Below, in pieces: positions 2 to 23,302 of a stretch of DNA of 64,000 nucleotides. The DNA lies in assembly GCA_964637115.1 (NCBI GenBank), contig CAZWVL010000003.1, positions 77,758-141,757 on the forward strand, read 5' to 3'. This DNA is from an uncultured Methanosarcinales archaeon (GTDB lineage Archaea > Nanobdellota > Nanobdellia > Woesearchaeales > ARS49). The notes below the pieces were generated by a model. It was not told where the DNA came from. It did no database searches and saw only the letters and a program-made list of their open reading frames with translations. A program made the translations under genes and the position numbers. Positions within the stretch are counted from its first letter, which is position 1, and every line of letters begins with the position of its first letter.

Positions 2-1804
2 GTTCTTGCAGACACAGCAGATGACTTGGGAAATACCGTCGGCAACGTAGCAGATTACGAGATAATCTACGACAACACAGGACCATACCCGCCACAAGTT
101 CTTGACTTCAAGGTAATATCAGGAGAAGAAGGAGTAGAATATCGAGGCGGAGCAATCAAAGGAAGCTTTGTACAATACACAGTCAGATCAGCAGACTTCA
201 CAACAAGTTATGCAAACTTCACAGACATCGGAGGCAGCGCACAAACAGGAGCAACAACCTGCACTCCAACAACCGGCAATGCGAGTGACTGCATATTTGA
301 AAGTTTAGTGGATTTAAGCGGACCATACACATCATACTTCACGTTCGTATTTGCAGACGATGCAAACAACACTGCACGAACAAACGCAACTCTTGAGATT
401 TACGGCATTGATAATGAAACGAATGTCAAGTACTGGAAGTCACCTCCAACAGTAACGTGCAGTCCATACGTCATTGACAGATCAACAGCATCACTAATTC
501 CGCCAATAGCAACATGCAGAGTAGATTTAGAAACACCGCGCAGAGACATAACAACACTAGCAATTGCAGGGCCAACGGCGCCAGACGAATGCACTGGCGA
601 CATCGAACTTTTCTTGAATGATATTTACGTGACGAACACAGTAGAGGGCAGCACGCATCCATACGTGTTCATGAAGCTCGAACCAAGAGATTATGTGTTT
701 AATGAACTAAACATCAACTGCCCGCTGTCAGTCTACAGCAAACGCGCAGTTACTGCAGGCGGAAAAACAGTCCATTATGTCTCACCAGAACCGCAAGAAG
801 TTCCAGTAAACATGACGCTTAAGTTCCACAGCAATCCTTTGGGTGAAATAAACGCGAACATCGACGACGAAATCAGAAGCGCAATGAAAGGAGGGCTGGC
901 AAACGCGGCATGGATAAGCGACCTCCGCAAATGGCTCCACTATGGAGAATTAATCTGCCAGATAAAAGTCCTCATCACCAACATCATCAGCGCGCTGTTT
1001 ATGGTAAGCATAGTGCTTGGCATAACAGCAGTTGCGGTGAGAGCAACAGGTGTAGGAGCTGGCGCAGCAGAAGTGCCTGCTCAGGCAGCAAAAGCAACTT
1101 GCACCGCAGAAGAAGGAGGCTCGGAAAGCTACAAGATAAGCTTAGGATTCCTTGATTCAATCTGCTCAGTAATCAACTGCGCAGCAGTAAGCGGCAAAGG
1201 TTCAGGCATAGAAGCATACGCAGGAGGAGGAGTGCCCTGGTGCTCAAATATGCGGGCATACTTGCAAAACCTTGACCCAACAGGCCAAGGAGCACTCGAC
1301 CTTGATGTCAAGAACTCACTCGTACTAAGCATAATATGTTTATGCCTGCCAGGCATTATTTACAACTTAGACAAGCTCAGACAAATACAATGCTTTAAGG
1401 CAGTCTGTTTGCACGATGACGTCAAATTATCCGGCTATCCTGCAAGCTTCTGCGATGAAATGTACGGCTACATGATGTGCGCGTTTGTCATTGGAGAACT
1501 ATTCTCCCTATTCCCATTCATAGCATTCTTCGACAAGATAATGAACATGGTATTAGACCTAATAACAAACCCAGTTGCACTATTCCTCACAGGACTCGGC
1601 TGGGTGTGCACACAAACCTGCTATACAATCGGCACGCAACCAGTATTATACACCGGTTGTGCGATATTGAAAACAGTATCGACAGTAGCAGAAGCAGTAG
1701 CAGCGTGGAAAACATACCAGAAAAACAAAGATTCATTCGGCACAGTAGGAAACAACTACTGCGATAGAATGGAAGAACTGGAAGACGAGATGGGGGAAGG
1801 ATGA
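2..1804 (+). CDS. Large Cys-rich surface/membrane protein, 5'-truncated by the window edge (smaller relative of the 2410-aa ORF)
   Basis: The frame is open from nt 2 to the edge, and the listed start at 26 is a TTG inside that open frame. It has an IIYDNTGP junction motif like the VDNSPP/YDTGPP motifs of the giant ORF. The C-terminal ~200 aa has 4-5 hydrophobic segments and a CLCLP...C-x8-C module. The TGA overlaps the next ATG (ATGA 1801-1804). Confidence 0.75.
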   Translation, partial: VLADTADDLGNTVGNVADYEIIYDNTGPYPPQVLDFKVISGEEGVEYRGGAIKGSFVQYTVRSADFTTSYANFTDIGGSAQTGATTCTPTTGNASDCIFESLVDLSGPYTSYFTFVFADDANNTARTNATLEIYGIDNETNVKYWKSPPTVTCSPYVIDRSTASLIPPIATCRVDLETPRRDITTLAIAGPTAPDECTGDIELFLNDIYVTNTVEGSTHPYVFMKLEPRDYVFNELNINCPLSVYSKRAVTAGGKTVHYVSPEPQEVPVNMTLKFHSNPLGEINANIDDEIRSAMKGGLANAAWISDLRKWLHYGELICQIKVLITNIISALFMVSIVLGITAVAVRATGVGAGAAEVPAQAAKATCTAEEGGSESYKISLGFLDSICSVINCAAVSGKGSGIEAYAGGGVPWCSNMRAYLQNLDPTGQGALDLDVKNSLVLSIICLCLPGIIYNLDKLRQIQCFKAVCLHDDVKLSGYPASFCDEMYGYMMCAFVIGELFSLFPFIAFFDKIMNMVLDLITNPVALFLTGLGWVCTQTCYTIGTQPVLYTGCAILKTVSTVAEAVAAWKTYQKNKDSFGTVGNNYCDRMEELEDEMGEG

Positions 1805-3549
1805 GAAAAATCCTCATTATTATTCTGATTGTACTCCTGGTTGGGTCGGTGATAGTTGAAGCTCAACAAACGTCATCCTCTGGAATTACTGTCACCCGTC
1901 GCGTGGAACCAGGCACACAGCCAGCAGCTGCTGCAAAACCAGGTGTAAAACCACCTACGCAGTACAATTACGTTGCTGAGAGGGACATTTCAAAAGATGA
2001 ACCAGTTGTTGTAACAACAGGCGGCATTAGATACTACGAGTACAAATTTGATACAGATATACGTAAAGGAGATACAATCGCATCACCAGATGCATTAGAC
2101 ACCAAAGTTCTGCAACAAATTCCTCCAGAAGTAAAAAAAGAAACTGACAAAAACCGAGAATATACGTATACTTCTGAAACCAACACCTTCGTTTGGTCAA
2201 AAGATAAACCAAAAGACGAATATATTATTGAAACAAAGACCGACCTCAAAGTAAGCGACGACGGCGAAAGCACAACCAGAGAAACCACACAATCAGTGTA
2301 TGATAAAACACCTGAAAAAGAAAAGGGCGAATACGTTGAAGGATCAAAGCGCACAGAAATTAAAGAAACAAAAACAGCGTCAAAAACAGATCCAAAAACA
2401 GGAAAAACAACCGAACGACAAGTGATTGCCAACGAAGGCAGAAGACTCTATGACAAGCAGGGCAATGAAATCGGAATCCTCTGGACCGGCTATTCAGCAT
2501 CCGAAAAAAACCCATTGGTGAGCGAGAAAACTTCACTTACCTTTGTGGGTAAGGATGGTCATACATACTATTATGCTACCCGAGACCCGGACGGCAATCA
2601 AGTCATTATGGTAAATGAGCTGGATAAGATGAAAGAAGCCGGGTTTACAGACGAACAAATAAATCAAGCTAGAGTTGATATCGTCGCGTCAGGCGTCATT
2701 GGATTCTTGGATTCTCTAAAAGTGCTCACCTGGCAGCAAAGCCTCGGCAGATTCATGAGGGCATACTACGAATTTGCAGGATTAAGACAATTATCATCAT
2801 TATTATGGCCAAGTTATGATGCGGAAGTGCAGGCAAGAAAAGCAGAAATCCAGCAAAAATTCTGCATTACAGCAGGCATAACAAACTGCGCAATCTCAAA
2901 AATATGCGGCACAATATATCCAATCGGTGCAGACAACGTCCTTGCAGGCAGAGGGCCAGGAGGCAAATTTGTATCCAGCGCCTCACTCAACGCAGAGCGC
3001 TCAATCCCAATAGAAGTAGAAGGAATGACAAGACAACAAATGATAGACTTGTTCGGCAATGCAACAGTCATCAAAGGAGTGCTTGTAAACCTCACAGACC
3101 CGGCATTTGATCCAAGAGTACTTGGCAGGATGAAACTCAGGCTCTACCACGTGCAGTATAGCGTAACAAACAATGCAGAAGATGAAAAGGAACTCAAGTA
3201 CAACCTGCACTTCAGAAGAGTTGGAGAACAATTGAACTCAAGCTATGGAAAACCAGTCTACCAGTCGCGCTGGTGGACAGACAACGCGCCAACATTATCC
3301 TATCTTGCAACCGCACGCGACCACATTTACAAGTTCAGCGCAACAGAATATGATAATGTATGCCTGGAGTTTGACCCAAAACTGCCGTCAGGACACGCAG
3401 CATTCTCAGACATGGTCGATGAATTATGCGTGCCATTCATAGAATACGCAGGCGGGCCAACAGAAATAACGCCAGGCGCACAAGCAGCAGCAGGAACACA
3501 GCCTGCCCCAGGAGCACCTGTTTCAAGCGTGCCAGGAGCAGCGGTATGA
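1801..3549 (+). CDS. Secreted protein of unknown function (582 aa)
   Basis: Sec-type signal MRKILIIILIVLLVGSVIVEA/QQ. The first half is K/E/T-rich and probably disordered, the C-terminal half contains Cys, and the tail is A/P/G-rich. There are ATGA overlaps with both neighbours. Confidence 0.8.
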   Translation: MRKILIIILIVLLVGSVIVEAQQTSSSGITVTRRVEPGTQPAAAAKPGVKPPTQYNYVAERDISKDEPVVVTTGGIRYYEYKFDTDIRKGDTIASPDALDTKVLQQIPPEVKKETDKNREYTYTSETNTFVWSKDKPKDEYIIETKTDLKVSDDGESTTRETTQSVYDKTPEKEKGEYVEGSKRTEIKETKTASKTDPKTGKTTERQVIANEGRRLYDKQGNEIGILWTGYSASEKNPLVSEKTSLTFVGKDGHTYYYATRDPDGNQVIMVNELDKMKEAGFTDEQINQARVDIVASGVIGFLDSLKVLTWQQSLGRFMRAYYEFAGLRQLSSLLWPSYDAEVQARKAEIQQKFCITAGITNCAISKICGTIYPIGADNVLAGRGPGGKFVSSASLNAERSIPIEVEGMTRQQMIDLFGNATVIKGVLVNLTDPAFDPRVLGRMKLRLYHVQYSVTNNAEDEKELKYNLHFRRVGEQLNSSYGKPVYQSRWWTDNAPTLSYLATARDHIYKFSATEYDNVCLEFDPKLPSGHAAFSDMVDELCVPFIEYAGGPTEITPGAQAAAGTQPAPGAPVSSVPGAAV

Positions 3550-4427
3550 AAATTGGAACGCCAAGAATTATTGGAATTTTATTGATAATAATAGCAGCGC
3601 TTGTTTACTTCACCGGACTAAAAGGGTGGTTTGGATTGGGAATAGCAGGACTCATTTTGCTGATAGCTTCATTAAATTACACGCAAAAAATGCTAGACCA
3701 GTTGATAGAAGCAGTCTCAGAATGGAAAACACTGTTTATCACAGCACTCTACGACGCAATCTGCTGGCTATTGATATTCGGCAGCGTATACTTCTTCCAA
3801 TGGAGACTACAGGTAAAATCAGCAATAGCACAGGCAGGCACGGTACTCACCAGAGAAGCAATGGCGAGTCCACAGTTAACTGCTCAAAACGCAACCCAAC
3901 TCCAAGGATTCTTCTTTTTCATCCTCACAAGCGCAATCATACTATTGGTTTTCAGTTTCCTGGCATATTCGATCTCACGCGGATTCATCTGGACAACAAT
4001 CGCCAAACAAAAAGCGGATAAAAAATTCTTCACCAGATGGCTTGGACTGAATGCAATCTGGTGGATAATCTGGACTCCAATATTCCTCATAATCATATTC
4101 GCCCTTAAAGGAAGCCCATTGACAAAAGGAGCAATCCTGTTCATAATGATGATAGCAGCATACTTCACACCGCTAGTACAAGTTTTGTTCCTGCGGACGA
4201 GAAAAATAGGTTACAGTCTCGCAAACGGACTAGGGTGGGGATTATCAAAACTGCATCTGCTTATAGTGCCTTATACGTACGCGTTTGTCATATACATAAT
4301 AATTTACCAATTGTTCAGATTATTTCAAAACACTACAGCAATGCGGCCAGTATCAATGCTGTTTGTCGTGCTATTCATCGCGTGGCTGAGAATATACCTC
4401 TATCACATTATCAAACAATTCAAGTAA
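3546..4427 (+). CDS. Polytopic membrane protein (about 293 aa), apparent paralog of 13684..14493
   Basis: The ATG at 3546 overlaps the upstream TGA (3547-3549), and the track start at 3426 lies inside the upstream gene. It has at least 7 hydrophobic helices. An N-terminal TM pair, a soluble helical stretch and then a TM bundle give the same layout as the ORF at 13684. Confidence 0.75.
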   Translation: MKIGTPRIIGILLIIIAALVYFTGLKGWFGLGIAGLILLIASLNYTQKMLDQLIEAVSEWKTLFITALYDAICWLLIFGSVYFFQWRLQVKSAIAQAGTVLTREAMASPQLTAQNATQLQGFFFFILTSAIILLVFSFLAYSISRGFIWTTIAKQKADKKFFTRWLGLNAIWWIIWTPIFLIIIFALKGSPLTKGAILFIMMIAAYFTPLVQVLFLRTRKIGYSLANGLGWGLSKLHLLIVPYTYAFVIYIIIYQLFRLFQNTTAMRPVSMLFVVLFIAWLRIYLYHIIKQFK

Positions 4428-4428
4428 A

Positions 4429-6462
4429 ATGAACAAAAAAAAGGGGCAGATAACAATTTTCATAATCATCGGAATAATTCTATTACTCAGCATAGGAGTA
4501 GGCCTATATTTCTACCAAAAAAGAGTTACTGCACCGATCAGAAGCATAGTTGCCGTTCCCGAAGATGTCCAGCAAATCTACGATTATGTCGCAACCTGCA
4601 CAAGCCAAATAGCAAAAGATGGACTGATATTACAGGGAACGCAAGGCGGCTACATCGACGTTCCACCAATAATTCAAAAAAATCCAAACGCATTCATCGC
4701 AGCAGACCCTGCAGGTATAGCAAAAACACCATTATGGTACTATGAAGGCGAAGACAGAACACCAACATTAGAATTCCAACAACGAGAACTCGCAGTATAC
4801 GTGAAACAAAATTTACCGGCCTGCGTTGGAAACTTTATGTCATTCAAAGACCGCTTTGAAATAATTCCAAAAAGCGATATAATTCCGGTAATCACGTACA
4901 CGGAAGAAGAAGTAATTGTAGAAATAAAATGGCAGCTCGATATCAGAGTGCAAGGCAGGCCAACACAGCTGGACGCATTTGTAGTCAGCTTCCCTCTCAA
5001 ATACAAAGCAATGTACGAATTAGCCAAGCAAACAATGGAAACAGAAAACAAAGAAGGATGGTTTGAAAATCTGACAATAGACCTAATGACTGCAAATTCC
5101 AAAATACCATTCTCGGGAATGGAACTAAGCTGCGGAACAAAAACCTGGCATATACAAGAAGTGAAAAAACAAGTACAAAGAATGCTGTACTACAACCTGC
5201 CCCTTATCAGGGTAGCAAACACAAATTATCCTCCGCCACTCGCCTCACTCAGGACATATGCTAATCTTAAATCACAGGCAGCAGACATAAGAGCAGACCT
5301 TGAAAAAGACAAAGAGCCAAACTGGCCTGAAAACCCTCCGGCAGACGTGTATGAAATGAACAGAATGATGTTTGACGCAGGAGCCAAAAAAACAGACTTG
5401 AAAACGGCGTTTACGTACCTGTCAAACTGGCCGTTATTCATTAACGCGCAGCCAAACAGCGGGGGAGTGTTAAGCACGGCAAACATGAAAGGACCGCGCA
5501 AATACCTAAGATTCCTCTGCATCAACCAATGGCACTTCACATACGACCTGATTTATCCAGTCAAAATGCAGATAAAAGATGATAATGCGTTCAACGGCGA
5601 AGGATTCGTGTTCCAAATGGGATTCCCAGTCATAATAGAAGACAATGAAGAAAGCAGAGTATTCTTCGGCATCAGAAGATTTGTAATCCCTGATGTAGGC
5701 ACGGAATTCTGCACAAACTACGGCACGCAATCAATAGAAGTCAGAGCAAAAGGATTTGTCGAAGGAGGAATAGTAGCAGAAGAACTGGATGACGCAAACA
5801 TAACATACACTTGCCTGAATAAAGAATGCCTGCTCGGCAAAACATACAGTGATGGCTCGGGAATAATCAGGCTAAACTCATACCTCCCAGAAGGATGCGC
5901 AAATCCTCTGCTGACTGCGCAGAAAGAAGGATACCTGCCGGCCAAAAAGTACGTGGACAAAGACTATGTGGAACTAATGATGACAAAGCTCAAACGAATG
6001 CCATACAAAATAGAAGTGCATCCATACGACTCAATCAACAAGCGCTCGATGGCAGACGTGTACTCAAAACTTCCAAAAACAATGCACGCAACAGTTACAA
6101 TCAGTTTGCGCAACCAATCATTTGACCAATACAAAAGCTATCCGGCAAATGGTACGCAATTCCAAGCAGAAGGAACAACAGACCTTTCAGACATAAGCGA
6201 AGTAACAAAAGATGAAGTAGACTTTGTCTACGACGACGCACAATATGACATCGACATACTATTGTTCAAAGGAAACACAGTGGTGGGAGGATACCACAGA
6301 GAGAATATCACAATCTCCTACGAAGATGTTGCGTCAGCAAGCGCTGTAACGTTCAAAGTCTTCGAATGGAGACCACTGCCAGAAGGCGAAAAACAGGCAC
6401 AAATGTTCCTGTACTTGTATGAAACAAAACACGAGGATTTAGGACCAAGCTTCCATGGATAA
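4429..6462 (+). CDS. Large exported protein with class III (prepilin-like) signal peptide
   Basis: The N-terminus MNKKKG/QITIFIIIGIILLLSIGVGLYF has basic residues, Gly at -1, Gln at +1 and then a hydrophobic helix. The remaining ~640 aa are hydrophilic with scattered Cys. It starts 1 nt after the upstream stop. Confidence 0.8.
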   Translation: MNKKKGQITIFIIIGIILLLSIGVGLYFYQKRVTAPIRSIVAVPEDVQQIYDYVATCTSQIAKDGLILQGTQGGYIDVPPIIQKNPNAFIAADPAGIAKTPLWYYEGEDRTPTLEFQQRELAVYVKQNLPACVGNFMSFKDRFEIIPKSDIIPVITYTEEEVIVEIKWQLDIRVQGRPTQLDAFVVSFPLKYKAMYELAKQTMETENKEGWFENLTIDLMTANSKIPFSGMELSCGTKTWHIQEVKKQVQRMLYYNLPLIRVANTNYPPPLASLRTYANLKSQAADIRADLEKDKEPNWPENPPADVYEMNRMMFDAGAKKTDLKTAFTYLSNWPLFINAQPNSGGVLSTANMKGPRKYLRFLCINQWHFTYDLIYPVKMQIKDDNAFNGEGFVFQMGFPVIIEDNEESRVFFGIRRFVIPDVGTEFCTNYGTQSIEVRAKGFVEGGIVAEELDDANITYTCLNKECLLGKTYSDGSGIIRLNSYLPEGCANPLLTAQKEGYLPAKKYVDKDYVELMMTKLKRMPYKIEVHPYDSINKRSMADVYSKLPKTMHATVTISLRNQSFDQYKSYPANGTQFQAEGTTDLSDISEVTKDEVDFVYDDAQYDIDILLFKGNTVVGGYHRENITISYEDVASASAVTFKVFEWRPLPEGEKQAQMFLYLYETKHEDLGPSFHG

Positions 6463-9400
6463 GAACACGAAAGAAGAAAAGAGGAAAGTGAATTATTTGA
6501 CGCGCTCTTTGAGTGAATTTTTCTCCCCCACACTTTGTAAGGGGGAGAAAAATTCACCCCATCATAGAACTCTTGCGCGGCGGCAGCTTGGGTCAGTGGC
6601 ATTATTCATGGCATTCCTCATCATCATGCTTCCAATAGTTGATGCTCAAGCAATTGGCGACCAGCCAACAGCACAGGGAGAAGAAACAACAGTCAAACCA
6701 CTGTTTGTAAACGCAACCATTCCACGATATCCGCGCACAATGAAGATAGACATTGCAGGAATTACAAAACCAGGAGCAACTATTACGATCAATATCAACG
6801 GCGCTGATGTCAAAAAAGACATCATTGATGATGGAACATTTTTGTTCAAGCAAGTCCAACTGCAGGCAAGCAACGCAATAATCATTACAGCAGAACTCGG
6901 CGGCGAAACAGCAACACAAACATACCAAGCAGACGTTGACAATTCTCCGCCGCTCATCAATATCACGACAACACCCGTAGTAACGGCAGCAAGCTCAACA
7001 GTCAAGGTCAAGGTTTCAGAACCAGTCAATCTGACAGTGCAGGCAGGAAATCAAACAAATAAATCATACTCGCTCCAGGCAGGAAGCAACGACGTTAAAA
7101 TAGAACTGCAGCCAGGCGAAAACATGGTCGGCTTTACGGCAGTTGATAGAGCCGGATTTAAATCATTCATTGAAGAAAGAATCGTTTACGACACAGGACC
7201 GCCAAGATTTGAAAAAACAAACCTGAACCAATTGTCTCCGACATACAGGCAAGAAGTGGAAGTCAAGGGCAAACTATCAGAACCCGGCAGCGTAACAGCA
7301 TTTGTCAACGGCAAACCACAAAAAACAGAAGCAACAGCTTCGGATGGAAGTTTCTCGATAAAAGTAAAACTTGAAAGATCGCTTTCGGTAACTGCAGGCT
7401 CACAATCAGCTTCAGGAGTCACGGGAGGAGCAGTATCAATAGAACAAGGCATCCAATGGAAAAGCAAACTAAGGCTCGAGGCAATCGACGCAGCAGGACT
7501 AAAAGCAACAACGGAAGAAGTTGAGATAGCATATTCCATCTGCGGAAGCGGCACGTGGATAGACGTCCAATTAACAGACCCAATGCCGGACATACTCAAT
7601 CCAAGACTGATAATTGAAGGCATACAGCAAGTCGGCATAGGCTTCAACTACACATACAGAGGCGGCGCAAAAGCAGAAATCGATGCAAGAAGCATCAGAA
7701 TAAGAACATTAATGCTTTCTCCAGAAGTCAGGAAAGAATTTGACAACAATCTGGTGATGGTACGGGCTCCAAACGTAAGAGCTCAGCGCGCAACCAAGCC
7801 TAGCGGAGTAGGCTACATACAAGTAAACTTCAATCCTTTAGAAGACCCGTGGAGCCTGCCTGAAAAAGACGGTAAAAAAGAAGAAGCGCCTGCAAACGCA
7901 ACAATGTTCGATCGTGAACAAAGAATCTCCCAACACAGAGAAGGAGACTGCATCACGCCCGGCTTTGGCTGCATGAAACTATTCCTTGAACTTGAAATTC
8001 CATTCACAGAAACAACCAGGAAAATGGCCTACGACCCGATTGTGCGCGGCACACTTGAAAAAGATGTCGTGGAGCCATTAACACAAAGAACGTGCATAGA
8101 TGTCAACATTGCGATAGACAAAAGAGTTCCTCCGGATGTATTGCCATCAGGACTTTTGCGAGCATCCAGCGAATTCCTCGGGGCAGTCATACAAGGCATA
8201 GACAAAGTATTAATGCCAATCCAGACAATCGGAAAGTACTTGTTTTACACGTGTGTAGCTGGACAATTCCTGTCACTAGTTCCAATCGTTCTCGAAAAAT
8301 ACAACTGCGAGTTCAGAAAAGTAGCGGACGTTTTAGCAGGAGGAGAAGGCGCATTTGACCCCAATGTAGCAGCAATCAACGCCTGCGACGCAGAATATGG
8401 TGCAGGTTCAGACGCAGCAGACAACTGCAACACCTGCCATAAATGGAAAGACTACCGCAAAAAATTTGTCAGAACATACAGACAAATCTGCGACAGAGTA
8501 ATGTGCCCGGCAGCACCATCACTGCAGTATTATCTCAAAACCAGAGGCAGAGAATCACCAACAGAAGTCAAAGCAGAAAATGCAAAAGCTGATCCCGTGA
8601 TTGCCCAATACGCCCAAGGCGGCAAACTCTTTGCCGGCAGCGACTGCGCAGCATGGGTTGACGTGAACAAGCGCAAAGAAGAAAGAGGCACGAAGAAACC
8701 AGTACTTGCTCCACGATTATTCTTCACCACTGATGAAATTCAAAAAATCTATGATAACTGGCTCAAACATCAGTCAAACACTGCAGGAGAAACAGAAACA
8801 GGCGGCGTAAACTGCGCAGGACTGCACCCTGCAACACCAGAATGCTGCGGATATGAGTATATGCAGGAATGGAGTTCAGCGTGCGGAACAAGCGCACTCG
8901 GGCAAAGCCTGGATACTTTTGACGAAATAAAAGAAAGCACCTGCCTCGCAGCACAACGATCAGGCAAGAACGAAATAGGAGGATTAGAAGGAGAATCAAT
9001 ACAGTGCAACAAACTGTTGAATGCAGCCAGCGGATTCTGCGAGAAAAACGGAATGCCGCCTTTGACGCCAATTAGAGTAACGACAATTGATGCGAGAAAA
9101 GCAGAGTCATTAGAACTGCAAAAATACGCAGAAAGCAACGACCTCTACATCATCGTGCAGGATAAAGGCGCGGCGAGCTCCATTTTAGGCGTAGTACCAA
9201 CAGGCCAGTCACAAGGATACTCAATCAAGCTGGGCTTAATAATAAAAACATTGGAGTTCCAAAAAAGCGACAAGCCGGAAATAATTGCAACAAGCGAACG
9301 CTCCAAGCTCACAGAAAAACTTGACGTGATAGAATATCCGGAGTATACAGCATTCCAAACATCATTCTTCAGCCAGGAACAGATAGACGTTTACAGAGAA

Positions 9401-12400
9401 AAAGCAGCAATTCCACCAGATTTCAAAAAAACACTCTGTGATGCAGCAGGCAAAAAATTCGGTCAGTGCAACATTGATGAAAAGTACATTTACGCCCAAG
9501 TAATTCAGGCCATTGGAAGCCCAGACAAAGACTACATCATCAAGCCAAACGAAGGGCTGATAAACTCAGTCAGATGCCTTTGCATCCCAACAATTGTTGG
9601 ATACCTCAAATTATGGAGAGGAATAATGGGAGCAGTAAAAAGCTGCATTGACACCATACTCCTGACTGGCGACGGAGAGAATGGAATGTGCCAGGCACTC
9701 GTCAGCAGATACGTCTGCGATTTATTGTATGACGCGCTTGCCTGCTTCACGCAAAAATTCGGCACAGGACAAGGAAGAGTAGAAAAAGAAGGCGGCGGAG
9801 ACATAATGGGGGCGTTAGTTTCTGCAGGAAGCGAAATGCAAAGAGAAGTGCAAGGCAGATATGGAGAAACAGGGCTTTACAAAGCAGTATTTGTCGACAG
9901 AAAATTAGTACACTCAATCTGCATGTGGGCGTTCACAGGAACGTGGAACTTCGACTTGGGAGCAATATTTGACCAAGCAATAGACGAAATCCCGATCAGC
10001 AGCCAGGCATTGCTAACACCGTGCAACAGAAGATTCGTAAGCTTCAACCCAACAACAAGACCAGGAGGACTGGTAACGTGGGTGTATCACTTCGGGTCAT
10101 TCTTCGCAGCAGGAGCAGACGCAGAAATAGAATTGCACCTTGTCTGCAGCGATGATTTCACGTGCAAAGAATCAGACGGCTTTGAAAACGGCAAGTGCGA
10201 CTGCCAAGGCAAAGGAAAAAGAGATATTGTTATCAGGCCGGAAAACCTTCCAACAAGAGCAAAGAAAAACCAAATCCTGAGCGAAGAAATATTCTTCACG
10301 ATGCAAGCAGGCAGCGGAGAGAGCAATGTTCGATATGACAAAGCATACCTCCTCTACAGGTGGAAAGAAGCAAACAAACAGATGAAAGAAGACAAGACAG
10401 AACCCTGCTCAATTGGATTAACAGGCGGCGGTGGAAGCATGCCTGCATTCTGCAGATGGGATCCGTTCACAGTAAGCTTCAGGTGCCAGTTTGGCGAAGC
10501 GGCAGGAGGAATACGCTTCAAATCAGGAAAACCAGACTACAAACATCCGACAGTAAAAGGCGGAGTTTTCGCACTTGACGAAAGCGTTAGTGTAGAACTG
10601 CAGATGCAGCAAGACTATCCAGGCGGAGAAAAGTACAACAAATACTTGCAGTACACCATACTAGGCCCAGGCAACAAAGAACTTGCCACTAACAAAGACA
10701 GAGGACTAATATTATTACAGACAAATGGCGATTACAATAAGCGATTATCAGCAGACGGCACGCCACCAGTGCCAATAGAAATAAAACGAGAATGGTTCAC
10801 AACAGTAGAAGCAGGAAAAACCTTTTCGGCCAGACAATGGGCAAAATCACCACAAAATCCAACAGGCACAGCAGCAGACAACAAAGTAATTGAAGATGTG
10901 CAATTGGTAGGACTTGTAGGAGCAGTAGCAGCACAAAAGCAGTTCGTGCTTGAGCTAACAAGACAAGGCGACAAAATAAATTATGCAGTCTACACAGCTG
11001 GCACGAACGACAAGCCAGGAGTGGGGGAAAAGGGCGGATTCTACGTTGCAACACCAGCACTCTGCACAGGCACAATTTCTGGAACGAAAATTACGTGCAC
11101 ACCATCAATAGCTCCAAGACCAGGGCAACCACCACAGCCGCAAGACACTCTAACAATAACACTCAAAGCAGATCCTCTTTACCCAACAGTAGACGAACTA
11201 ATCCAGCTGCACATAAACATGAACATTCCAAGAACATTAGCAGCTGACCCGTGCAAAGGAGACGTAAACAACAGGTATCAACAATCATTCAAAATGATGC
11301 TGATGGCATACGATGCAGATAATTATGGATCACCATCAGAACAAGTAGCAGTAGACCCGTATACAGGAGCGGAAGCGGTGTTTGAAATTCCATTTTATGC
11401 CATGTGCGCAACGGCAGATGAATTAAAGCCGCTGGAAGGAATACTTGGGCCAGCAGAAATATTGGCAGGACTGAGCAAGGACATAAACGCGTGGTTAGCA
11501 CCAGAAAAAGATTACAAGACCAAACTCGAAGGATTTGTCTCGCAACCACTCAAGATAGAACAAACTACGAGTGTGCAAAATCAACTCGACCAGATAATCT
11601 TTGGCGAAACGGCAAATTCAGTTGTACTCGAGAAATACAAAACCAATCTGAAGAATATAACAGGAATGGATGCAGTAAAAGCAGCAGTTGAAGAATTATA
11701 CAATATTATCAGACCTCCATTCCACGCTGAACTCGATTTGCGCAATGTTGTCGGCTTGTCAATTGATGCCAAAAATGTTATCACAAACGAGCTTAAAGGC
11801 ACGCCAAACGTGACAAAAATACAGGATGCGCTCAGACCAATCATACCAGAACTTCAGAAAGCACTCGAAGCAAAACAGAAATTACTAACTTTGCTGCCAG
11901 CAGCTGCAGGCGAAAAAGGAGCCTGCCCAAGCGGAAAACAAGTTCCAGAAAAAACAGGAGAATATTATCTCTGTGCAACATCCTTGCCATCAGACAAATG
12001 GGTTGAAGTAACGGACAGGCAATGCTACGCAGTTGAAAAACAAACATGCTACAAATTGTCGGCTTCAAACCTCTGTTACGACAAAAACACGAATGGAGAC
12101 ACGTTCCACTGCGACACAGAATGCAAAGGAAACTCAGAAACATCAAGTGAGCAACGCATTTGTCCGAAGAAAGAAGAGCCAACGTGTTGTGTAGTCAAGT
12201 CAACAATTGCGCAAAAACTCCTGCAACTGAAAAACCAAATCGGCCAGCAGCAAGGCGATGATGAAAGCTTCAGGTCAAGCATTACCACAACAAGGACAAA
12301 TGAAGAATTAATTACATATCTGGTTGGAACAGGCGATATAAATGTCCCAACACTGATATCAGAGCTGAAAGCATATGCGTCTTTGAAAAATCTTGAAAGA

Positions 12401-13687
12401 GAAGGGCTCTCAAGTGTTGTTGGGTCATCAGGCCTGACACCCACTGATGAAGTCAGACGTTTCATTGGCATGGATGAAGATTATGCCTGGAAAACAACAT
12501 TTATGGTATTTGGAATACCTTTTGAACTTCACGCTTTGTCGGTATCGGTTGAAAACTTGAATAAAATGAAAGACGACCTAGTGGCAATGGCACAAGCGCC
12601 GCCAACAGCGCCAAACGGACCATCTCCTGAAAACATAAAAGCAGCCATTGCCCGCATTTCATTGGAAGTTGGCGTTATTAAGGCAACGCGCGCACTTGCC
12701 ATCAATTCGCTTGACAAAGACCTAGGCATCATACCAAAGACTACAGAAGAAGTTGTAAAAGAAACTGCTGGTGCAGCGCCGGCAGCAGCGTCAGTTGCAG
12801 CCCCGCCAAAACTTCCGCTCAGCATCAACGGCAAAACAGACCTTGCAATTATTACAAAAGGAACAGATATTCAAGTCAAAATAATACTTCCAAAAAACGT
12901 ACAAGCCTTTGAGTACATTGAATTATTCGCATACAAAAGCAATGTTCACATTGCCACCTGGGACCTCAGAAACAACTACAATCCAAGCACGGGTGAGGCA
13001 ACATATATGTTAGGCCCAGACCAGTACGCCAATTTTGTAATAGGCGAAACATACGAATTTGACATGGCGTATAATCCGCCGCACACAATTGGAAACAAAG
13101 TACAAGTGAGAATAATTGTTCCGCCATGCGGAGACGGAAAAATAGACCAAGGAGAAGTATGCGACAGAAAGAGCGATGGAACAGTAATAGCAAGCAATGA
13201 AATGGTTTACAATCCAACCACATTTACTGCATACTGGCAGATTTATGCACCATCGATGGGACCATTCGGAGCGACTGAATATAGAGTATTGTTCAGCAAA
13301 AACATGCAGACGTTCTGTAATGATATCATTGGAGAAGATTGTGATGACAAGGTGGAATACTCTGCAGAAAAAGGATGGTGTTCAGGAGACTGCAAGAAAT
13401 TCATGCCAAGAGTTGGGTGCGTAGATGATGACACAATCGGCGACAGCGGAAGAGCAGCATATCTCACGCCAGAATTCTATTACGAAGGCACGGAAAAAAA
13501 GATGAACAACGTATGGTGGTATCTCTTCAGCGATCCAAACGCGGGAAGAAATGGATGCTATCCAACCACTGAAGAGGCAGGATTGCCTCCATACAACGAT
13601 AAATGGACAGAAGCACCAGTTCCAATAGACTATCCGCAATTTATGACCAAGCCCGCTCCTTTCCAACCTCCAACGGCACAACCATGA
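6455..13687 (+). CDS. Giant Cys-rich surface protein (2410 aa)
   Basis: Uninterrupted 7.2-kb ORF. The signal-like h-region is VALFMAFLIIMLPIVDAQA. N-terminal modules are separated by VDNSPP / YDTGPP junctions, consistent with an Ig-like array. There are many Cys clusters, including CLCIP...C-x8-C, and a CGDGKIDQGEVCD repeat near the C-terminus. The exact start is uncertain: the ATG at 6455 overlaps the upstream stop, but the hairpin lies before the signal peptide. Confidence 0.85.
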   Translation: MDKNTKEEKRKVNYLTRSLSEFFSPTLCKGEKNSPHHRTLARRQLGSVALFMAFLIIMLPIVDAQAIGDQPTAQGEETTVKPLFVNATIPRYPRTMKIDIAGITKPGATITININGADVKKDIIDDGTFLFKQVQLQASNAIIITAELGGETATQTYQADVDNSPPLINITTTPVVTAASSTVKVKVSEPVNLTVQAGNQTNKSYSLQAGSNDVKIELQPGENMVGFTAVDRAGFKSFIEERIVYDTGPPRFEKTNLNQLSPTYRQEVEVKGKLSEPGSVTAFVNGKPQKTEATASDGSFSIKVKLERSLSVTAGSQSASGVTGGAVSIEQGIQWKSKLRLEAIDAAGLKATTEEVEIAYSICGSGTWIDVQLTDPMPDILNPRLIIEGIQQVGIGFNYTYRGGAKAEIDARSIRIRTLMLSPEVRKEFDNNLVMVRAPNVRAQRATKPSGVGYIQVNFNPLEDPWSLPEKDGKKEEAPANATMFDREQRISQHREGDCITPGFGCMKLFLELEIPFTETTRKMAYDPIVRGTLEKDVVEPLTQRTCIDVNIAIDKRVPPDVLPSGLLRASSEFLGAVIQGIDKVLMPIQTIGKYLFYTCVAGQFLSLVPIVLEKYNCEFRKVADVLAGGEGAFDPNVAAINACDAEYGAGSDAADNCNTCHKWKDYRKKFVRTYRQICDRVMCPAAPSLQYYLKTRGRESPTEVKAENAKADPVIAQYAQGGKLFAGSDCAAWVDVNKRKEERGTKKPVLAPRLFFTTDEIQKIYDNWLKHQSNTAGETETGGVNCAGLHPATPECCGYEYMQEWSSACGTSALGQSLDTFDEIKESTCLAAQRSGKNEIGGLEGESIQCNKLLNAASGFCEKNGMPPLTPIRVTTIDARKAESLELQKYAESNDLYIIVQDKGAASSILGVVPTGQSQGYSIKLGLIIKTLEFQKSDKPEIIATSERSKLTEKLDVIEYPEYTAFQTSFFSQEQIDVYREKAAIPPDFKKTLCDAAGKKFGQCNIDEKYIYAQVIQAIGSPDKDYIIKPNEGLINSVRCLCIPTIVGYLKLWRGIMGAVKSCIDTILLTGDGENGMCQALVSRYVCDLLYDALACFTQKFGTGQGRVEKEGGGDIMGALVSAGSEMQREVQGRYGETGLYKAVFVDRKLVHSICMWAFTGTWNFDLGAIFDQAIDEIPISSQALLTPCNRRFVSFNPTTRPGGLVTWVYHFGSFFAAGADAEIELHLVCSDDFTCKESDGFENGKCDCQGKGKRDIVIRPENLPTRAKKNQILSEEIFFTMQAGSGESNVRYDKAYLLYRWKEANKQMKEDKTEPCSIGLTGGGGSMPAFCRWDPFTVSFRCQFGEAAGGIRFKSGKPDYKHPTVKGGVFALDESVSVELQMQQDYPGGEKYNKYLQYTILGPGNKELATNKDRGLILLQTNGDYNKRLSADGTPPVPIEIKREWFTTVEAGKTFSARQWAKSPQNPTGTAADNKVIEDVQLVGLVGAVAAQKQFVLELTRQGDKINYAVYTAGTNDKPGVGEKGGFYVATPALCTGTISGTKITCTPSIAPRPGQPPQPQDTLTITLKADPLYPTVDELIQLHINMNIPRTLAADPCKGDVNNRYQQSFKMMLMAYDADNYGSPSEQVAVDPYTGAEAVFEIPFYAMCATADELKPLEGILGPAEILAGLSKDINAWLAPEKDYKTKLEGFVSQPLKIEQTTSVQNQLDQIIFGETANSVVLEKYKTNLKNITGMDAVKAAVEELYNIIRPPFHAELDLRNVVGLSIDAKNVITNELKGTPNVTKIQDALRPIIPELQKALEAKQKLLTLLPAAAGEKGACPSGKQVPEKTGEYYLCATSLPSDKWVEVTDRQCYAVEKQTCYKLSASNLCYDKNTNGDTFHCDTECKGNSETSSEQRICPKKEEPTCCVVKSTIAQKLLQLKNQIGQQQGDDESFRSSITTTRTNEELITYLVGTGDINVPTLISELKAYASLKNLEREGLSSVVGSSGLTPTDEVRRFIGMDEDYAWKTTFMVFGIPFELHALSVSVENLNKMKDDLVAMAQAPPTAPNGPSPENIKAAIARISLEVGVIKATRALAINSLDKDLGIIPKTTEEVVKETAGAAPAAASVAAPPKLPLSINGKTDLAIITKGTDIQVKIILPKNVQAFEYIELFAYKSNVHIATWDLRNNYNPSTGEATYMLGPDQYANFVIGETYEFDMAYNPPHTIGNKVQVRIIVPPCGDGKIDQGEVCDRKSDGTVIASNEMVYNPTTFTAYWQIYAPSMGPFGATEYRVLFSKNMQTFCNDIIGEDCDDKVEYSAEKGWCSGDCKKFMPRVGCVDDDTIGDSGRAAYLTPEFYYEGTEKKMNNVWWYLFSDPNAGRNGCYPTTEEAGLPPYNDKWTEAPVPIDYPQFMTKPAPFQPPTAQP
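6513..6557. repeat. Perfect 17-bp inverted repeat (hairpin) at the junction of the 677-aa and 2410-aa ORFs
   Basis: GTGAATTTTTCTCCCCC (6513-6529), an 11-nt loop, then GGGGGAGAAAAATTCAC (6541-6557), an exact reverse complement. Confidence 0.9.
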
Positions 13688-14493
13688 CCCTAATTACAAC
13701 CCTCCCCCTCGCCTGGAAGGCATTCACTGAAAACAAGAAGTATTTGATATGGATAATCCTAATAGAATTCGTATTCCTCTTTGTTCTAACTCAAATACAT
13801 TTGATGTACTTCGTGCCAAGCGCAGAAGCAGCAGCAAGAGCAGGAGAAATAATGACGCAAGAAGTACAGAAATTGCCGGAAACAGAAATTTATCAGCTTG
13901 AAACACTGCTTGTGAAAAATGAAGGCTTTATGACAGCATACAACGAGTTGCTTGCCTATATGGGCTTTTTCATAATAAGCCTGTTTATTGCATTTGTTGT
14001 TTTCAGAACTCCATTATGGTATATCTCGCACAAAAGCATACTGAAGAAAATGCCCTGGAAACCAGTGCTGATAAAGTTTCCATTGCTTTCACTGTTCTGG
14101 TTTGTAGTGCTGGTAATAGCTTTTTCACTTTACAGCATTGGCACAGGCAGCACAACAACAGTACTGCCAATTTTCAGCCCGTTCTGGGTGACGATACTAA
14201 TGTACATAGTATTTCTGGCTATCTTTTACTTCTCCCAAATCAGTTTTGCTCTCATCCCGTCACAACAAACCTTTAAGAATACGTTCATCTATGGCACTAG
14301 ACATGCAAAAACAATCATTCCAGCATTCCTCGTCAACGCAATCATTACTTTCATTGTCTGCTCATTGCCATTCAACTGGATTACAACAAAACCACTCATC
14401 TCGCTCGCAATCATACTCATCATCACAATTCCAGCACTTGCATTTGCAAGACTGCACATCATAGTAGCAACATGGCAAAAACCGCAATCATAA
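13684..14493 (+). CDS. Polytopic membrane protein (about 269 aa), apparent paralog of 3546..4427
   Basis: The ATG at 13684 overlaps the giant ORF's TGA (ATGA 13684-13687), and the track start at 13603 is inside the upstream gene. It has 6-7 hydrophobic helices with a soluble helical insert after the first TM. Confidence 0.75.
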   Translation: MTLITTLPLAWKAFTENKKYLIWIILIEFVFLFVLTQIHLMYFVPSAEAAARAGEIMTQEVQKLPETEIYQLETLLVKNEGFMTAYNELLAYMGFFIISLFIAFVVFRTPLWYISHKSILKKMPWKPVLIKFPLLSLFWFVVLVIAFSLYSIGTGSTTTVLPIFSPFWVTILMYIVFLAIFYFSQISFALIPSQQTFKNTFIYGTRHAKTIIPAFLVNAIITFIVCSLPFNWITTKPLISLAIILIITIPALAFARLHIIVATWQKPQS

Positions 14494-15071
14494 CAATATT
14501 GCTGATATTCGTAGTAGTTCTGTTAGTTTACATAGCAGTCAGACAGCCAGCAGTTGTAACAACGCCCGCACAGCCAACGCCAATACAGCAGCTAACGCCA
14601 AGGGCGCCAGCAATAGAAGTCGGCGTGCCAACGCAAAAAGCGCCCGTGACAAAACAACCGGCAGCAGGAATTGAAATAGAAAAAGTCATACCGCAAGAAG
14701 TAAACTTCTGGATAAATGACATAAGAGCGCCAGAAACAACCACGTATGCAGAAGGATTAAACTTCATACCAATCAAGCAAAGCGACATCAAAACATTTGC
14801 AGGAAGCTTTGGACCATACTTTGAAGACCCGACTCCGCATATGAAAGTAGTCCTTTGCGCAGAATATTACAAAGTCGCTGCAGCACCAGCCTGCGAAGTC
14901 GTGCAATTAGTATTCCAAGACAAGTATGCAACGTTCGCACGCGGATACCAATTTGACGAGTACATAGGCGGAATGGCAGCAAAAGACTACGTTGCCTATT
15001 ACACAATTTACGCCGGAGAAGCTCCAGTTGGATACAGCAACAAAGCGGTCATTAGAACAGTAAGAGATTAA
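14472..15071 (+). CDS. N-terminally anchored exported protein (199 aa)
   Basis: TM anchor MAKTAIITILLIFVVVLLVYIAV, a P/T/Q-rich linker, then a ~130-aa globular domain. It overlaps the upstream gene by 22 nt and is the last gene before a T-rich terminator. Confidence 0.75.
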   Translation: MAKTAIITILLIFVVVLLVYIAVRQPAVVTTPAQPTPIQQLTPRAPAIEVGVPTQKAPVTKQPAAGIEIEKVIPQEVNFWINDIRAPETTTYAEGLNFIPIKQSDIKTFAGSFGPYFEDPTPHMKVVLCAEYYKVAAAPACEVVQLVFQDKYATFARGYQFDEYIGGMAAKDYVAYYTIYAGEAPVGYSNKAVIRTVRD

Positions 15072-15078
15072 ATTCCGA

Positions 15079-15095
15079 TTTTTTCCATCTTTTTT
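15079..15095 (+). terminator. T-rich archaeal-type terminator of the 15-kb operon
   Basis: Two T6 runs (15079-15084 and 15090-15095) lie directly after the stop at 15069-15071. This is the first such signal after seven coupled genes. Confidence 0.55.
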
Positions 15096-17178: not shown

Positions 17179-17472
17179 TTATGCGGTTCTAGCGTAAGGC
17201 AAGGAAAGTTCCAAGGCCGATTCCAACAATTCAGGTTTAGGAGGCAGGTTATTTATCAGGCGCGTGAAGTAAGCACAAACATTATTCCGCGCAACATCAA
17301 AACGGTCAGCAGTCATGTCCAAACTGCTTCTTACGGGGCCCAGCTCAGAACGATATTTAGAATGTACGACGTTGAATTGCCTATTCACTCCAGAATAGCC
17401 CTGCAGGTCATTAGTTCGTGCGCACCTCACCAAGCGCACTACCAGCTCGTACAGCTGGGATTCCTGCACCAT
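17179..17472 (-). CDS. Hypothetical protein (97 aa)
   Basis: ORF only, with no recognisable motif. Confidence 0.4.
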   Translation of the reverse strand: MVQESQLYELVVRLVRCARTNDLQGYSGVNRQFNVVHSKYRSELGPVRSSLDMTADRFDVARNNVCAYFTRLINNLPPKPELLESALELSLPYARTA

Positions 17473-17504
17473 AACGAAAATACATGTCTTTCTAGAATAA
17501 AAAG

Positions 17505-19814: not shown

Positions 19815-20707
19815 GGCTTTTTCAAATCTGACGGGTATTTCTTCAAGTAAGCGCCGATTATTTCAGCGTTAGCGGCTTCTTTCTCAAATGTTTCCACATA
19901 AACAATTTCCTTGCCACTGGACCAAACTGCAATCCTGTGGTCCTCCTCAGAGAGGAAGAGCGCCAAGTTATGACCGGCATGCGTCTTCCAGCCATTAACG
20001 ATAATATCTTTGAACATGGTAGCAAGAGTCTTGTCCAATTCCTGACGGTTGTTGAAGTCAAAGATATGCACCAAAACAACAACACCGGTTTTCGGTTCAC
20101 GGTACTTGGCATCGTATCTAATAACATTAATGTCTGCAAAATTATCCTTCTCAGCAGTTGTTGACATCACCTTAAATGGACCAACAGTCATATTAAGCAC
20201 GAACTGCTCAACGTTTGCCAGCTCTGGAATCTTGCCAGTCGCCTTGCCCTTGACTGTAAACTTAACAAGCATCCACTTCTTGCCGTTGCACTCCCACTTG
20301 CCGGCAGCTTTCGAACAGGCATAAACAACAAAGTAGTTTTCGCCCTCAACAAACTTGGAAGCATCAACCGTCACGCTTCCAATGGCCTGGCCTTTCAACC
20401 ACTGCTCAGCTGCTTCGCCCTGCAGGGAAAACTTCTCCCAAGTTCTCGTAACTGAGTTAAAGACATAGCCGTTAGAATAAACGTAGTCAAAGTTTGAAAC
20501 AGAAACAACAACACCATCACCAAAATACGCTTCAGAAGGCGTAATAGCAACATTTTTTGCCTCAGCAGCCCAGGATGGCATTCCTGCAGCCATGCCTGCT
20601 ATCGCTTTTCCAATTTCTCCGCCCGGAGGAGGAGGGTTGGGAGGCAGCTCATCCTTGCACGCTACAAGTAAGAATAGTAACAATACTGCAAGTGCAACAC
20701 GTTTCAT
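19811..20707 (-). CDS. Lipobox protein, paralog of the N-terminal domain of 17505..19814 (298 aa)
   Basis: The signal FLLVAC followed by ELPPNPPPPGGE is nearly identical to its neighbour. Shared motifs are NY(F/I)V(V/I)Y.C...KW.CN.KKW. ATGA overlap (19811-19814) with the downstream gene. Confidence 0.8.
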   Translation of the reverse strand: MKRVALAVLLLFLLVACKDELPPNPPPPGGEIGKAIAGMAAGMPSWAAEAKNVAITPSEAYFGDGVVVSVSNFDYVYSNGYVFNSVTRTWEKFSLQGEAAEQWLKGQAIGSVTVDASKFVEGENYFVVYACSKAAGKWECNGKKWMLVKFTVKGKATGKIPELANVEQFVLNMTVGPFKVMSTTAEKDNFADINVIRYDAKYREPKTGVVVLVHIFDFNNRQELDKTLATMFKDIIVNGWKTHAGHNLALFLSEEDHRIAVWSSGKEIVYVETFEKEAANAEIIGAYLKKYPSDLKKP

Positions 20708-20756: not shown

Positions 20757-21455
20757 TTACTTAGGTATTTCTTTGATGCGTTCATCAATGAACTTCTCGT
20801 TCCAGCCATTGGCAAGCAAGTGCATTCTCAATGTTTCCTGCTTGTATCCGGCATTCGTGTAATTCATCAAATACTGCCTGACTAGTTTCTTATCTTCCAC
20901 TTCTTCTTTCTTCTTATGAGCGATACTTGCAGTAATCATGCCTGCAATAATGATGAGAGCCAGTACGGATAACGTGACGCTCAGGATTGCATTCTTCTTT
21001 TGAGAACCCTGCAAGTTTGTGATAGCATCAAAGAAAGGAGCCTCAAAAGAAGGCCTTTGCTTCAAGTTTTCAATATCGACCGTGGCAGCAGTCATCTGAC
21101 TCTGCACGGCGTCAAGCCGTGAAGACATATCAGAAGCAATTTTCAACTGCGCTTCAGCAGTTGCTAATCTCTGCTCCCAAGCAGGCAGCAAGTTCAACTT
21201 CTGCTCGATGGAATCCAATCTGGCAAGAAGAGCCTGCATGTCCTCAGATTTTGGAGCTGGTTTGGGCGGCGTAACAATTGCTGGTGGAGAAACATTAACT
21301 GCTGGCAGAACCTGGTCTGATTCCATTCCTGGAGGCGCAGGAGGCTCTGGAAGATCCAACGGCTGGAAACCCGTTAACGAATTATGTCCATTAGAAGCAG
21401 CCAAAAACAATGTCAGCGCTGCTATGATTAGTATTGCTGCCACACTCTTTTTCAT
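20757..21455 (-). CDS. Bitopic membrane protein with coiled-coil ectodomain (232 aa)
   Basis: N-terminal signal, a P-rich linker, a heptad-like helical region, an internal TM (LSVTLSVLALIIIAGMITASIA) and a basic cytoplasmic tail. Confidence 0.65.
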   Translation of the reverse strand: MKKSVAAILIIAALTLFLAASNGHNSLTGFQPLDLPEPPAPPGMESDQVLPAVNVSPPAIVTPPKPAPKSEDMQALLARLDSIEQKLNLLPAWEQRLATAEAQLKIASDMSSRLDAVQSQMTAATVDIENLKQRPSFEAPFFDAITNLQGSQKKNAILSVTLSVLALIIIAGMITASIAHKKKEEVEDKKLVRQYLMNYTNAGYKQETLRMHLLANGWNEKFIDERIKEIPK

Positions 21456-23223: not shown

Positions 23224-23302
23224 TATGTTCTATTCGTTCTATATCAAAAATTGGTTGATGAGTTCAAGGGTTGCGTATAACAATTAGTTAGTGAGAGTTA
23301 CA

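Follow-up and report, generated by a model that had tools for sequence, protein, structure and literature searches.

We analysed a stretch of 64,000 nucleotides (nt; hereafter the window) from an archaeon deposited as an uncultured Methanosarcinales archaeon and placed by GTDB among the Woesearchaeales (assembly GCA_964637115.1, contig CAZWVL010000003.1, forward-strand positions 77,758 to 141,757). Its first 15 kb belong to a tightly packed operon of eight genes, g0 to g7, which spans 18,528 nt and of which the window holds seven. Sequence comparisons indicate that this cluster is a tandem duplication of one module, composed of a pilin-like protein, a giant protein, in one copy an additional exported protein, and a protein with six or seven transmembrane (TM) segments. 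All products are predicted to be exported or located in the membrane. We see an even chance that they form a two-part surface complex of several subunits, the giant being anchored or presented by its pilin-like partner, with adhesion or host contact as the probable role.

The genes of the operon that lie in the window, and the tract that follows them, are listed below. Positions are those of the window, lengths are in amino acids (aa), and full-length residue numbers for g1 refer to the 1,035-aa protein P0146.

2-1804, + strand: g1, open at the left edge (C-terminal 600 of 1,035 aa)
1801-3549, + strand: g2, 582 aa
3546-4427, + strand: g3, 293 aa
4429-6462, + strand: g4, 677 aa
6455-13687, + strand: g5, 2410 aa
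13684-14493, + strand: g6, 269 aa
14472-15071, + strand: g7, 199 aa, last gene of the operon
15079-15095, + strand: T6-N5-T6 tract (TTTTTT at 15079-15084 and 15090-15095), directly 3' of the g7 stop

An initial annotation of the window had described these seven plus-strand open reading frames (ORFs), their junctions and the T-rich tract, and we recovered all of them at the same positions. Read directly in the sequence, the genes overlap by ATGA at 1801, 3546 and 13684, by 8 nt between g4 and g5 (6455-6462) and by 22 nt between g6 and g7 (14472-14493), and a single nucleotide (4428) separates g3 from g4. Only five T5 runs occur inside the 15 kb (at 3915, 6518, 6839, 13966 and 14121), and the T6-N5-T6 tract is likely an archaeal oligo-T terminator. 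The arrangement is more than chance, because independent gene calls on public contigs predict the same genes and because the same proteins occur in the same order in many genomes (25-80% identity). Scans for sigma-70 promoters and hairpin terminators gave nothing better than shuffled sequences, and both are inapplicable to an archaeon. As for the 8-nt overlap, the sequence is present, and the g5 start at 6455 on which it depends is probable rather than certain. The ATG at 6455 keeps M[DN]KN, the ancestral start of relatives in which g4 and g5 overlap by ATGA. Ahead of the signal-peptide core, g5 carries an insertion of about 40 aa (6464-6586) that most relatives lack, so GTG 6596 or ATG 6608 are possible alternative starts. 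The insertion could be regulatory, or the true start could have shifted downstream; a small hairpin and a T5 run lie within it (6503-6522).

The operon had been expected to continue past the left edge of the window, and it does so by exactly one coupled gene. Contig L042 shares 4,764 nt with the window, without a mismatch, and supplies the 435 residues missing from g1 (full-length product P0146) and, upstream of it, g0 (718 aa), which overlaps g1 by ATGA. The start codon of g0 is GTG, with GAGGGTGA, a strong ribosome-binding site, in front. The spacer 5' of g0 (178 nt; L042:2751-2928, window about -3634 to -3457) includes TTTATATA and a T7 run, in which a possible 23-codon upstream ORF ends; it may be a leader or attenuator arrangement. 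Further upstream follow u301, ribosomal protein S6e and PTH2 and, still further in the relatives L007 and L010, threonyl-tRNA synthetase (ThrRS). The u301 protein has a single TM segment and immunoglobulin (Ig)-like parts, and its gene has its own TATA-like element. At 30% identity u301 still adjoins g0, which makes it a possible accessory member of the cluster. No homology between u301 and g7 was found.

The case for a duplicated module comes from three pairwise comparisons, which sharpen the two-fold organisation proposed in the initial annotation. The pilin-like proteins g0 and g4 are paralogs (BLASTP E=8e-27; hhalign E=2.6e-77), the polytopic proteins g3 and g6 are probably paralogs (hhalign probability 93%, E=3.5e-7, 219 columns), and the giants g1 and g5 have a signal and Ig-like N-terminal region in common (hhalign E=5e-9). 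Two members are extra: g2, an exported protein of module 1, and g7, a small anchored protein encoded 3' of g6 in module 2.

This organisation is conserved. We surveyed related loci with a pattern-limited scan of one genome per GTDB species, which returned 35 loci, and found the synteny in metagenome-assembled genomes (MAGs) of Woesearchaeota/Nanoarchaeia. Truncated loci aside, g0 adjoins g1 in essentially all of them; the order g0-g1-g2-g3-g4-g5 could be labelled in 14 and holds down to 25-35% identity, and all inspected loci retain the overlaps within the g0/g1 and g4/g5 pairs. The most distant loci have a minimal four-gene unit of g0, g1, an exported protein of 640-1,000 aa and a 6-TM protein. 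One genome (L025) has a third module, and in two loci (L014, L021) module 1 stands with no module 2 beside it. Four relatives carry toxin-antitoxin-like or other small genes between members, where they leave the gene order undisturbed (L002:7226-7902; L004:17230-18190; L014:13445-14802; L021:13649-14649 and 17282-18679); they encode MazE plus a PIN protein, a nucleotidyltransferase plus a partner, and PIN-like proteins. The earlier description of the cluster as one expression unit is thus likely correct in this genome and not obligatory for the family, given the inserted genes and the solitary first modules of relatives. The products did not resolve into known S-layer or adhesin families lacking a conserved order, and nothing pointed to independently transcribed genes that are fortuitously adjacent. 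The flanks are housekeeping genes, with S6e, PTH2 and ThrRS upstream, NOG1 downstream and central metabolism beyond. Relatives of g4 or g1 were absent from 2.9 million viral contigs, with no PHROG match either, and no integrase was seen among the flank ORFs scanned or inspected. The housekeeping context and the lack of relatives on viral contigs point to vertical inheritance of the cluster.

The pilin-like subunits provide the only link between the cluster and a known kind of system, the substrates of type IV filaments. Both proteins begin with M..KKGQIT(I/V)FIIIG, and the prepilin-like signal first noticed on the 677-aa protein is conserved in both paralog families, the pattern G-Q-(I/L)-T-x-F-I-I-x-G being kept across 28 g0 and 19 g4 sequences. 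In g4 the signal reads as follows, the slash marking the predicted cleavage site.

4429-4515, + strand: g4 class III (prepilin-like) signal MNKKKG/QITIFIIIGIILLLSIGVGLYFY, FlaFind-type pattern

The FlaFind-type class III pattern is satisfied by KG/QITI followed by 18 residues with a mean Kyte-Doolittle hydropathy of 2.7, and g4 is the sole protein of the window with such a pattern, internal C-terminal anchors aside. When the N-termini of g0 and g4 were searched in isolation, 5 of 8 sequences gave sub-threshold matches to PF13400 (TadE/G-like pseudopilin; E 0.03-2.2) in which the alignment begins at the predicted cleavage site; PF04021 gave none. An AlphaFold2 (AF2) model of g4 (predicted local distance difference test, pLDDT, 85; predicted template modelling score, pTM, 0.58) shows an N-terminal helix (residues 4-38), followed first by an alpha/beta domain (about 45-410) and then by beta-sandwich domains (about 430-650). 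It thus includes the extended N-terminal helix leading into a globular domain that type IV filament substrates have. Foldseek matched the g4 model in the PDB to generic sandwiches of the Ig and fibronectin type III (FN3) kinds only. This is a very large family: run as a full HMMER scan and counted as clusters at 50% identity, the g4 profile gave 7,963, 5,290 and 1,360 clusters at E<=1e-3, 1e-10 and 1e-30, of which the E<=1e-3 tier may take in generic helix or Ig matches. All named members are Woesearchaeota.

The giants, g1 (predicted to be Sec-exported, Cys-rich, with Ig-like N-terminal domains) in module 1 and g5 (2,410 aa, Cys-rich, likewise with predicted Sec export) in module 2, also have a second, weaker element in common, the Cys-rich motif S..CLC.P..I..L...R.I (E=3.6e-4, probability 37%). 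The relevant elements of the two proteins are the following.

950-1039, + strand: g1 hydrophobic stretch LICQIKVLITNIISALFMVSIVLGITAVAV, full-length residues 751-780, the sole family-conserved one
1313-1411, + strand: g1 Cys-rich motif S..CLCLPGIIYNL..LRQI.CFKAVCL, common to g5
8237-8293, + strand: g5 hydrophobic stretch, aa 595-613, conserved; in the AF2 model at the turn between two long helices
9551-9649, + strand: g5 Cys-rich motif NS.RCLCIPT..GYL..WR.I, lying in a predicted bundle of helices

Family-averaged hydropathy gives one conserved hydrophobic stretch per giant, at 751-780 of g1 and 595-613 of g5. The bundle of TM segments that the initial annotation had placed at the C terminus of g1 is not borne out by this analysis, and we rejected it. 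A membrane-spanning role for g5 595-613 is implausible, because it would leave 1,800 residues, including beta-sandwiches and CGDG-type Cys repeats, in the cytoplasm. The core of g5 is conserved (aa 100-1400, nt 6752-10654; column pair identity about 0.5-0.6), and its C-terminal 1,000 aa are variable and partly coiled-coil (nt 10655-13684; pair identity 0.15-0.3). An AF2 model of the core (aa 340-1460; pLDDT 70, pTM 0.48) combines very long helices with beta-sandwiches and a long beta-hairpin. The hydrophobic stretch falls in this model at the turn linking helices 565-606 and 608-627, where it would tentatively be the tip of a helical hairpin, and the CLC.P motif lies in a helical bundle at about 1010-1180. 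Foldseek searches with the core against the PDB and BFVD returned nothing at E<=1e-3, only generic Ig/FN3-like sandwiches. No DUF2341, vWA or beta-propeller domain was detected in g1 or g5 by Pfam or by Foldseek on the g5 core; in g5, Pfam identified no toxin domain, and there is no C-terminal hydrophobic segment. We also rejected an origin of g5 by fusion of a g1-like with a g2-like part, since aligning g2 to g5 with hhalign gave a probability of 1%.

The remaining members give fewer clues. With 7 predicted TM segments, g3 (293 aa) is the membrane partner of module 1, and g6 (269 aa, 6 predicted TM segments) that of module 2; their 6-TM family has no match in Pfam or the PDB. We considered and rejected a role for them as prepilin peptidase or sortase, as they lack a conserved Asp pair, GxGD, Cys or His and any Pfam match. 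In module 1, g2 is a 582-aa exported protein with a Sec signal, with a variable stretch of 300 aa at its N terminus and a conserved one of 280 aa at its C terminus; it too is without a match in Pfam or the PDB. The 199-aa g7 is N-terminally anchored and kept 3' of g6 in relatives, and no homology between g2 and g7 was found.

For all products, as well as for g0, u301 and the divergent members of distant loci, searches of Pfam, NCBIfam and PHROGs gave nothing above threshold. This agrees with the first impression that the cluster holds no ATPase, protease, glycosyltransferase, S-layer or archaellum domain. PDB sequence profiles searched with the g1, g5, g4, 6-TM and g2 families gave nothing informative, the only matches being an FN3-like insert in some g5 homologs and coiled-coil or low-complexity noise. 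Genes for a secretion ATPase or platform protein (TadC/FlaJ) were absent from the cluster, from about 23 other scanned ORFs of the window and from the upstream region. Neither does the locus behave as a hypervariable toxin/Ig cassette with shuffled downstream genes: the C terminus of g5 is variable, but g6, g7 and the locus context are conserved.

We favour a surface complex with a pilin-like anchor because the class III-type signal is the cluster's one tie to known biology. In such a complex, g0 and g4 would be cut by the prepilin peptidase of the cell, and their hydrophobic N-terminal helix would then keep them in the membrane as an anchored stalk. Alternatively, they could be placed on a type-IV-like filament assembled by proteins encoded at other sites of the genome. 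The giant, which is translationally coupled to the pilin-like gene, would be carried by the pilin-like subunit, and the polytopic partner (g3 or g6) could be a membrane dock or an insertion aid. The giant, a disulfide-rich protein on this reading, would contribute Ig-like N-terminal domains, one hydrophobic helical hairpin and a Cys-rich helical bundle. Its conserved core would build the structure. Contact with the ligand, most likely another cell or a surface, would fall to the distal regions that evolve fast, namely the C-terminal 1,000 aa of g5 and the N-terminal 300 aa of g2. The internal duplication and the tight coupling indicate a defined multi-subunit assembly. The combination of a conserved core and a variable tip suggests a variable ligand, and we infer from this that the complex most likely serves in adhesion or host contact. 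Published work is compatible with this reading. Woesearchaeota express archaellins (PMC11606122), hence the machinery for class III processing exists in some of them. In archaea, genes for pilins are commonly found outside type IV pilus (T4P) loci, and for some nanoarchaeal T4P ATPases no cognate pilins were identified (PMC4858521).

Several observations weigh against this reading. The whole g0 and g4 proteins match no Pfam pilin or class III model (PF04021, PF07790, PF13400 and similar) at threshold, and their globular part, of about 640 aa, is far above that of filament-forming pilins. A prepilin peptidase, a type IV filament ATPase and a platform protein were not found among the approximately 30 of the ~50 long ORFs of the window that were scanned; inspection of ORFs in the ±10-kb flanks of the 35 related loci, a few of these ORFs being scanned as well, revealed none of these genes either. 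The hairpin-tip reading of the g5 stretch is tentative, since the model of g5 is only of moderate quality. Finally, the tightly conserved core and the housekeeping neighbourhood would fit a basic envelope component equally well. The cluster could encode a structural scaffold that is not host-specific, an S-layer-like canopy of giants with the pilin-like and polytopic proteins as anchor. Its core-genomic, vertically inherited position near translation genes, the strong conservation of the cores, the huge size of the family and the predicted extracytoplasmic location of all products are consistent with such a scaffold, which we nevertheless regard as unlikely. Neither a recognised S-layer domain nor a C-terminal anchor (TM, PGF-CTERM) was found by Pfam, NCBIfam or, for g5, hydropathy, and N-glycosylation sequons are not enriched in g5 (9 found, 13 expected), although we judged sequon density uninformative as a marker of surface glycoproteins and rejected it as such. 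Eight subunits in two paralogous sets are also many when compared with the one- or two-protein archaeal S-layers (PMC5744192), Woesearchaeota MAGs hold separately annotated and highly expressed S-layer genes (PMC11606122), and in some genomes module 1 has no module 2 next to it.

A more radical proposal is that the hairpins of g1 and g5 insert into the membrane of a partner cell after contact, forming a pore or cytoplasmic bridge that needs no dedicated ATPase. Each giant has one conserved hydrophobic stretch, too short and isolated for an ordinary membrane anchor; in g5 it lies at a hairpin tip in the model and is followed by long helical, coiled-coil-like regions, and the lack of an ATPase in the cluster and the lifestyle of DPANN archaea would suit such a machine. 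We consider it doubtful, as no pore-forming or fusion protein in the PDB or BFVD matches structurally, model confidence is moderate, the stretch could be buried or touch the 6-TM partner, and no host is known for these organisms. The same low probability goes to its fullest form, a self-contained, ATPase-less contact machine unique to Nanoarchaeia in which a pilin-like stalk presents a membrane-inserting giant. An uptake complex of the bindosome type, with class III-signal binding proteins and a 6-TM permease, seems very improbable. Sulfolobus sugar-binding proteins carry class III signals, which those of g0 and g4 resemble, and g3 and g6 have the size and TM count of small permeases. However, no ABC ATPase was found in the cluster in any locus examined, no permease or binding-protein domain was detected, the TM segments of g3 lack conserved charged or polar residues, and the giants would have no role. 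Hardly any weight is left for unrelated surface genes brought together by chance, or for structural genes of a provirus or mobile element. Relatives do tolerate toxin-antitoxin insertions between members, and further surface-protein genes abound in the left third of the window. Yet synteny largely refutes this origin: order and overlaps are kept down to 22-35% identity, the modules are paralogous, neither the 2.9 million viral contigs nor PHROGs gave a match, and the flank ORFs scanned or inspected are housekeeping genes without an integrase.

Literature searches found no description of the cluster; five known systems come nearest to it. Modules of type IV minor pilins and tip adhesins (bacterial PilVWX-PilY1; archaeal Epd and subsystem 4A with DUF2341/PilY-like proteins; PMC4858521; bioRxiv 10.64898/2026.04.22.720090) likewise have a prepilin-signal gene beside, and coupled to, a gene for a very large exported protein, and their pilin genes may sit away from the ATPase. 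In contrast to those tip adhesins, g1 and g5 lack DUF2341, beta-propeller and vWA domains; g0 and g4 are 5-10 times larger than the pilins and match no pilin model, a 6-7-TM partner is present, and no ATPase or platform gene was found nearby. The T4P subclade 4G of Pyrobaculum and Thermoproteus, in which two large proteins occur and most components have conserved cysteines (PMC4858521), resembles the cluster in its large exported proteins, many conserved cysteines, pilin-like association and extreme divergence. This subclade, which we compared by description only, is however defined by its own ATPase and TadC in the locus, and the cluster has neither. Among envelope structures, SlaB anchors SlaA in Sulfolobus. 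Like the co-transcribed slaAB genes (PMC6911244), the cluster pairs a large outer protein with a membrane-anchored partner that would form an envelope structure, but it has eight genes instead of two, shows no sequence or fold similarity, and would be anchored by an N-terminal pilin-like helix and a polytopic protein rather than by a C-terminal TM stalk. The VARTIG module of Thermococcales (PMC8416519) also combines a large Ig-domain surface protein that has a variable end with uncharacterised downstream genes; it occurs in hypervariable, recently acquired islands with shuffled downstream genes, whereas the cluster has a fixed order, a core-chromosome location and an internal duplication. The SPEARE proteins of Nanohaloarchaeota (PMC6642349) are likewise giant DPANN surface proteins proposed for host contact. 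They are reportedly encoded by single genes with protease, adhesion and nuclease domains, in contrast to a multi-gene module with no detectable enzymatic domain. None of these five systems has detectable sequence or fold likeness to the cluster, which would be a pilin-associated surface complex, with a modest chance of being a categorically new contact apparatus.

These results may have consequences for the biology of a group of which, to our knowledge, no member has been cultured. The cluster is a concrete candidate for the means by which DPANN archaea recognise other cells and stay attached to them; it is a locus of the core genome and not a strain-specific island. All eight protein families lie outside Pfam, NCBIfam and the PDB, even though the pilin-like family alone has more than 1,000 clusters at 50% identity. 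The cluster may also supply the "missing" pilin-like substrates of nanoarchaeal type IV ATPases (PMC4858521). If the giants did insert into partner membranes, they would be the long-sought apparatus for membrane contacts or cytoplasmic bridges between DPANN archaea and their hosts, with folds unrelated to any known pore-former, fusogen or secretion system. If the cluster were merely a structural component of the envelope, it would still define the surface architecture of a very widespread archaeal order.

The homologs all come from MAGs of Candidatus Woesearchaeota/Nanoarchaeia; one homolog of g1 (L041) belongs to MAG.4 of Lake Dziani Dzaha (PMC11606122), a site rich in Woesearchaeota. Many of the MAG records with the cluster are titled "uncultured Methanosarcinales archaeon", as is that of the window, and two are titled Binatia or Myxococcales bacteria; such titles are probably taxonomic mislabels of bins or contaminating contigs. 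Outside the cluster the window is ordinary chromosomal DNA, encoding the NOG1 GTPase, a 2-oxoacid dehydrogenase complex, lipoate synthesis, an H+-pyrophosphatase, a Cu-ATPase, a TrmB-family regulator, an Lrp/AsnC-type regulator, an AMP phosphorylase and tRNA genes. The tRNA calls differ: one at 54569-54653 (+) was made by Rfam and missed by ARAGORN, and tRNA-Val at 59761-59833 (+) was called by ARAGORN and is absent from Rfam at the gathering score.

Two further groups of surface-protein genes follow the operon.

17505-19814, 19811-20707 and 20757-21455, - strand: coupled trio of envelope proteins without Pfam matches, which adjoins the cluster in close relatives too
21599-23125, 23291-25666 and 25723-26934, + strand: three tandem paralogous genes for mucin-like surface proteins

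Each mucin-like protein has a Sec signal, a conserved N-domain of about 60 aa, a very long (PTST)n Thr/Pro repeat and a Cys-rich domain. Their C-termini end in a conserved GAF(A/T)G..N.RGALIAG element, a TM segment and a basic tail, and this element may be a sorting signal. The (PTST)n repeats account for the GC skew of -0.3 to -0.35 at 22-26 kb, and the (VGVEVGVD)n ORFs antisense to them are shadows. Two proteins of the envelope trio begin with a lipobox-like LLVAC followed by a PPNPPPPG linker, and the 769-aa member contains 47 Cys and 15 N-glycosylation sequons, along with CGNG..GEQCD repeats and a TM segment at its C terminus. We also observed a short, unannotated cytoplasmic motif, Y(L/I)...L..GY....I...LL..G(Y/W)....I, on single-TM proteins; it has no Pfam match and occurs at the following sites.

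20757-21455, - strand: at the C-terminus
L025:6103-7356, - strand: at the N-terminus
L036:2523-3341, + strand: at the N-terminus
L040:13207-13911, - strand: at the N-terminus

In distant loci, the single-TM proteins bearing this motif are encoded inside or beside the module.

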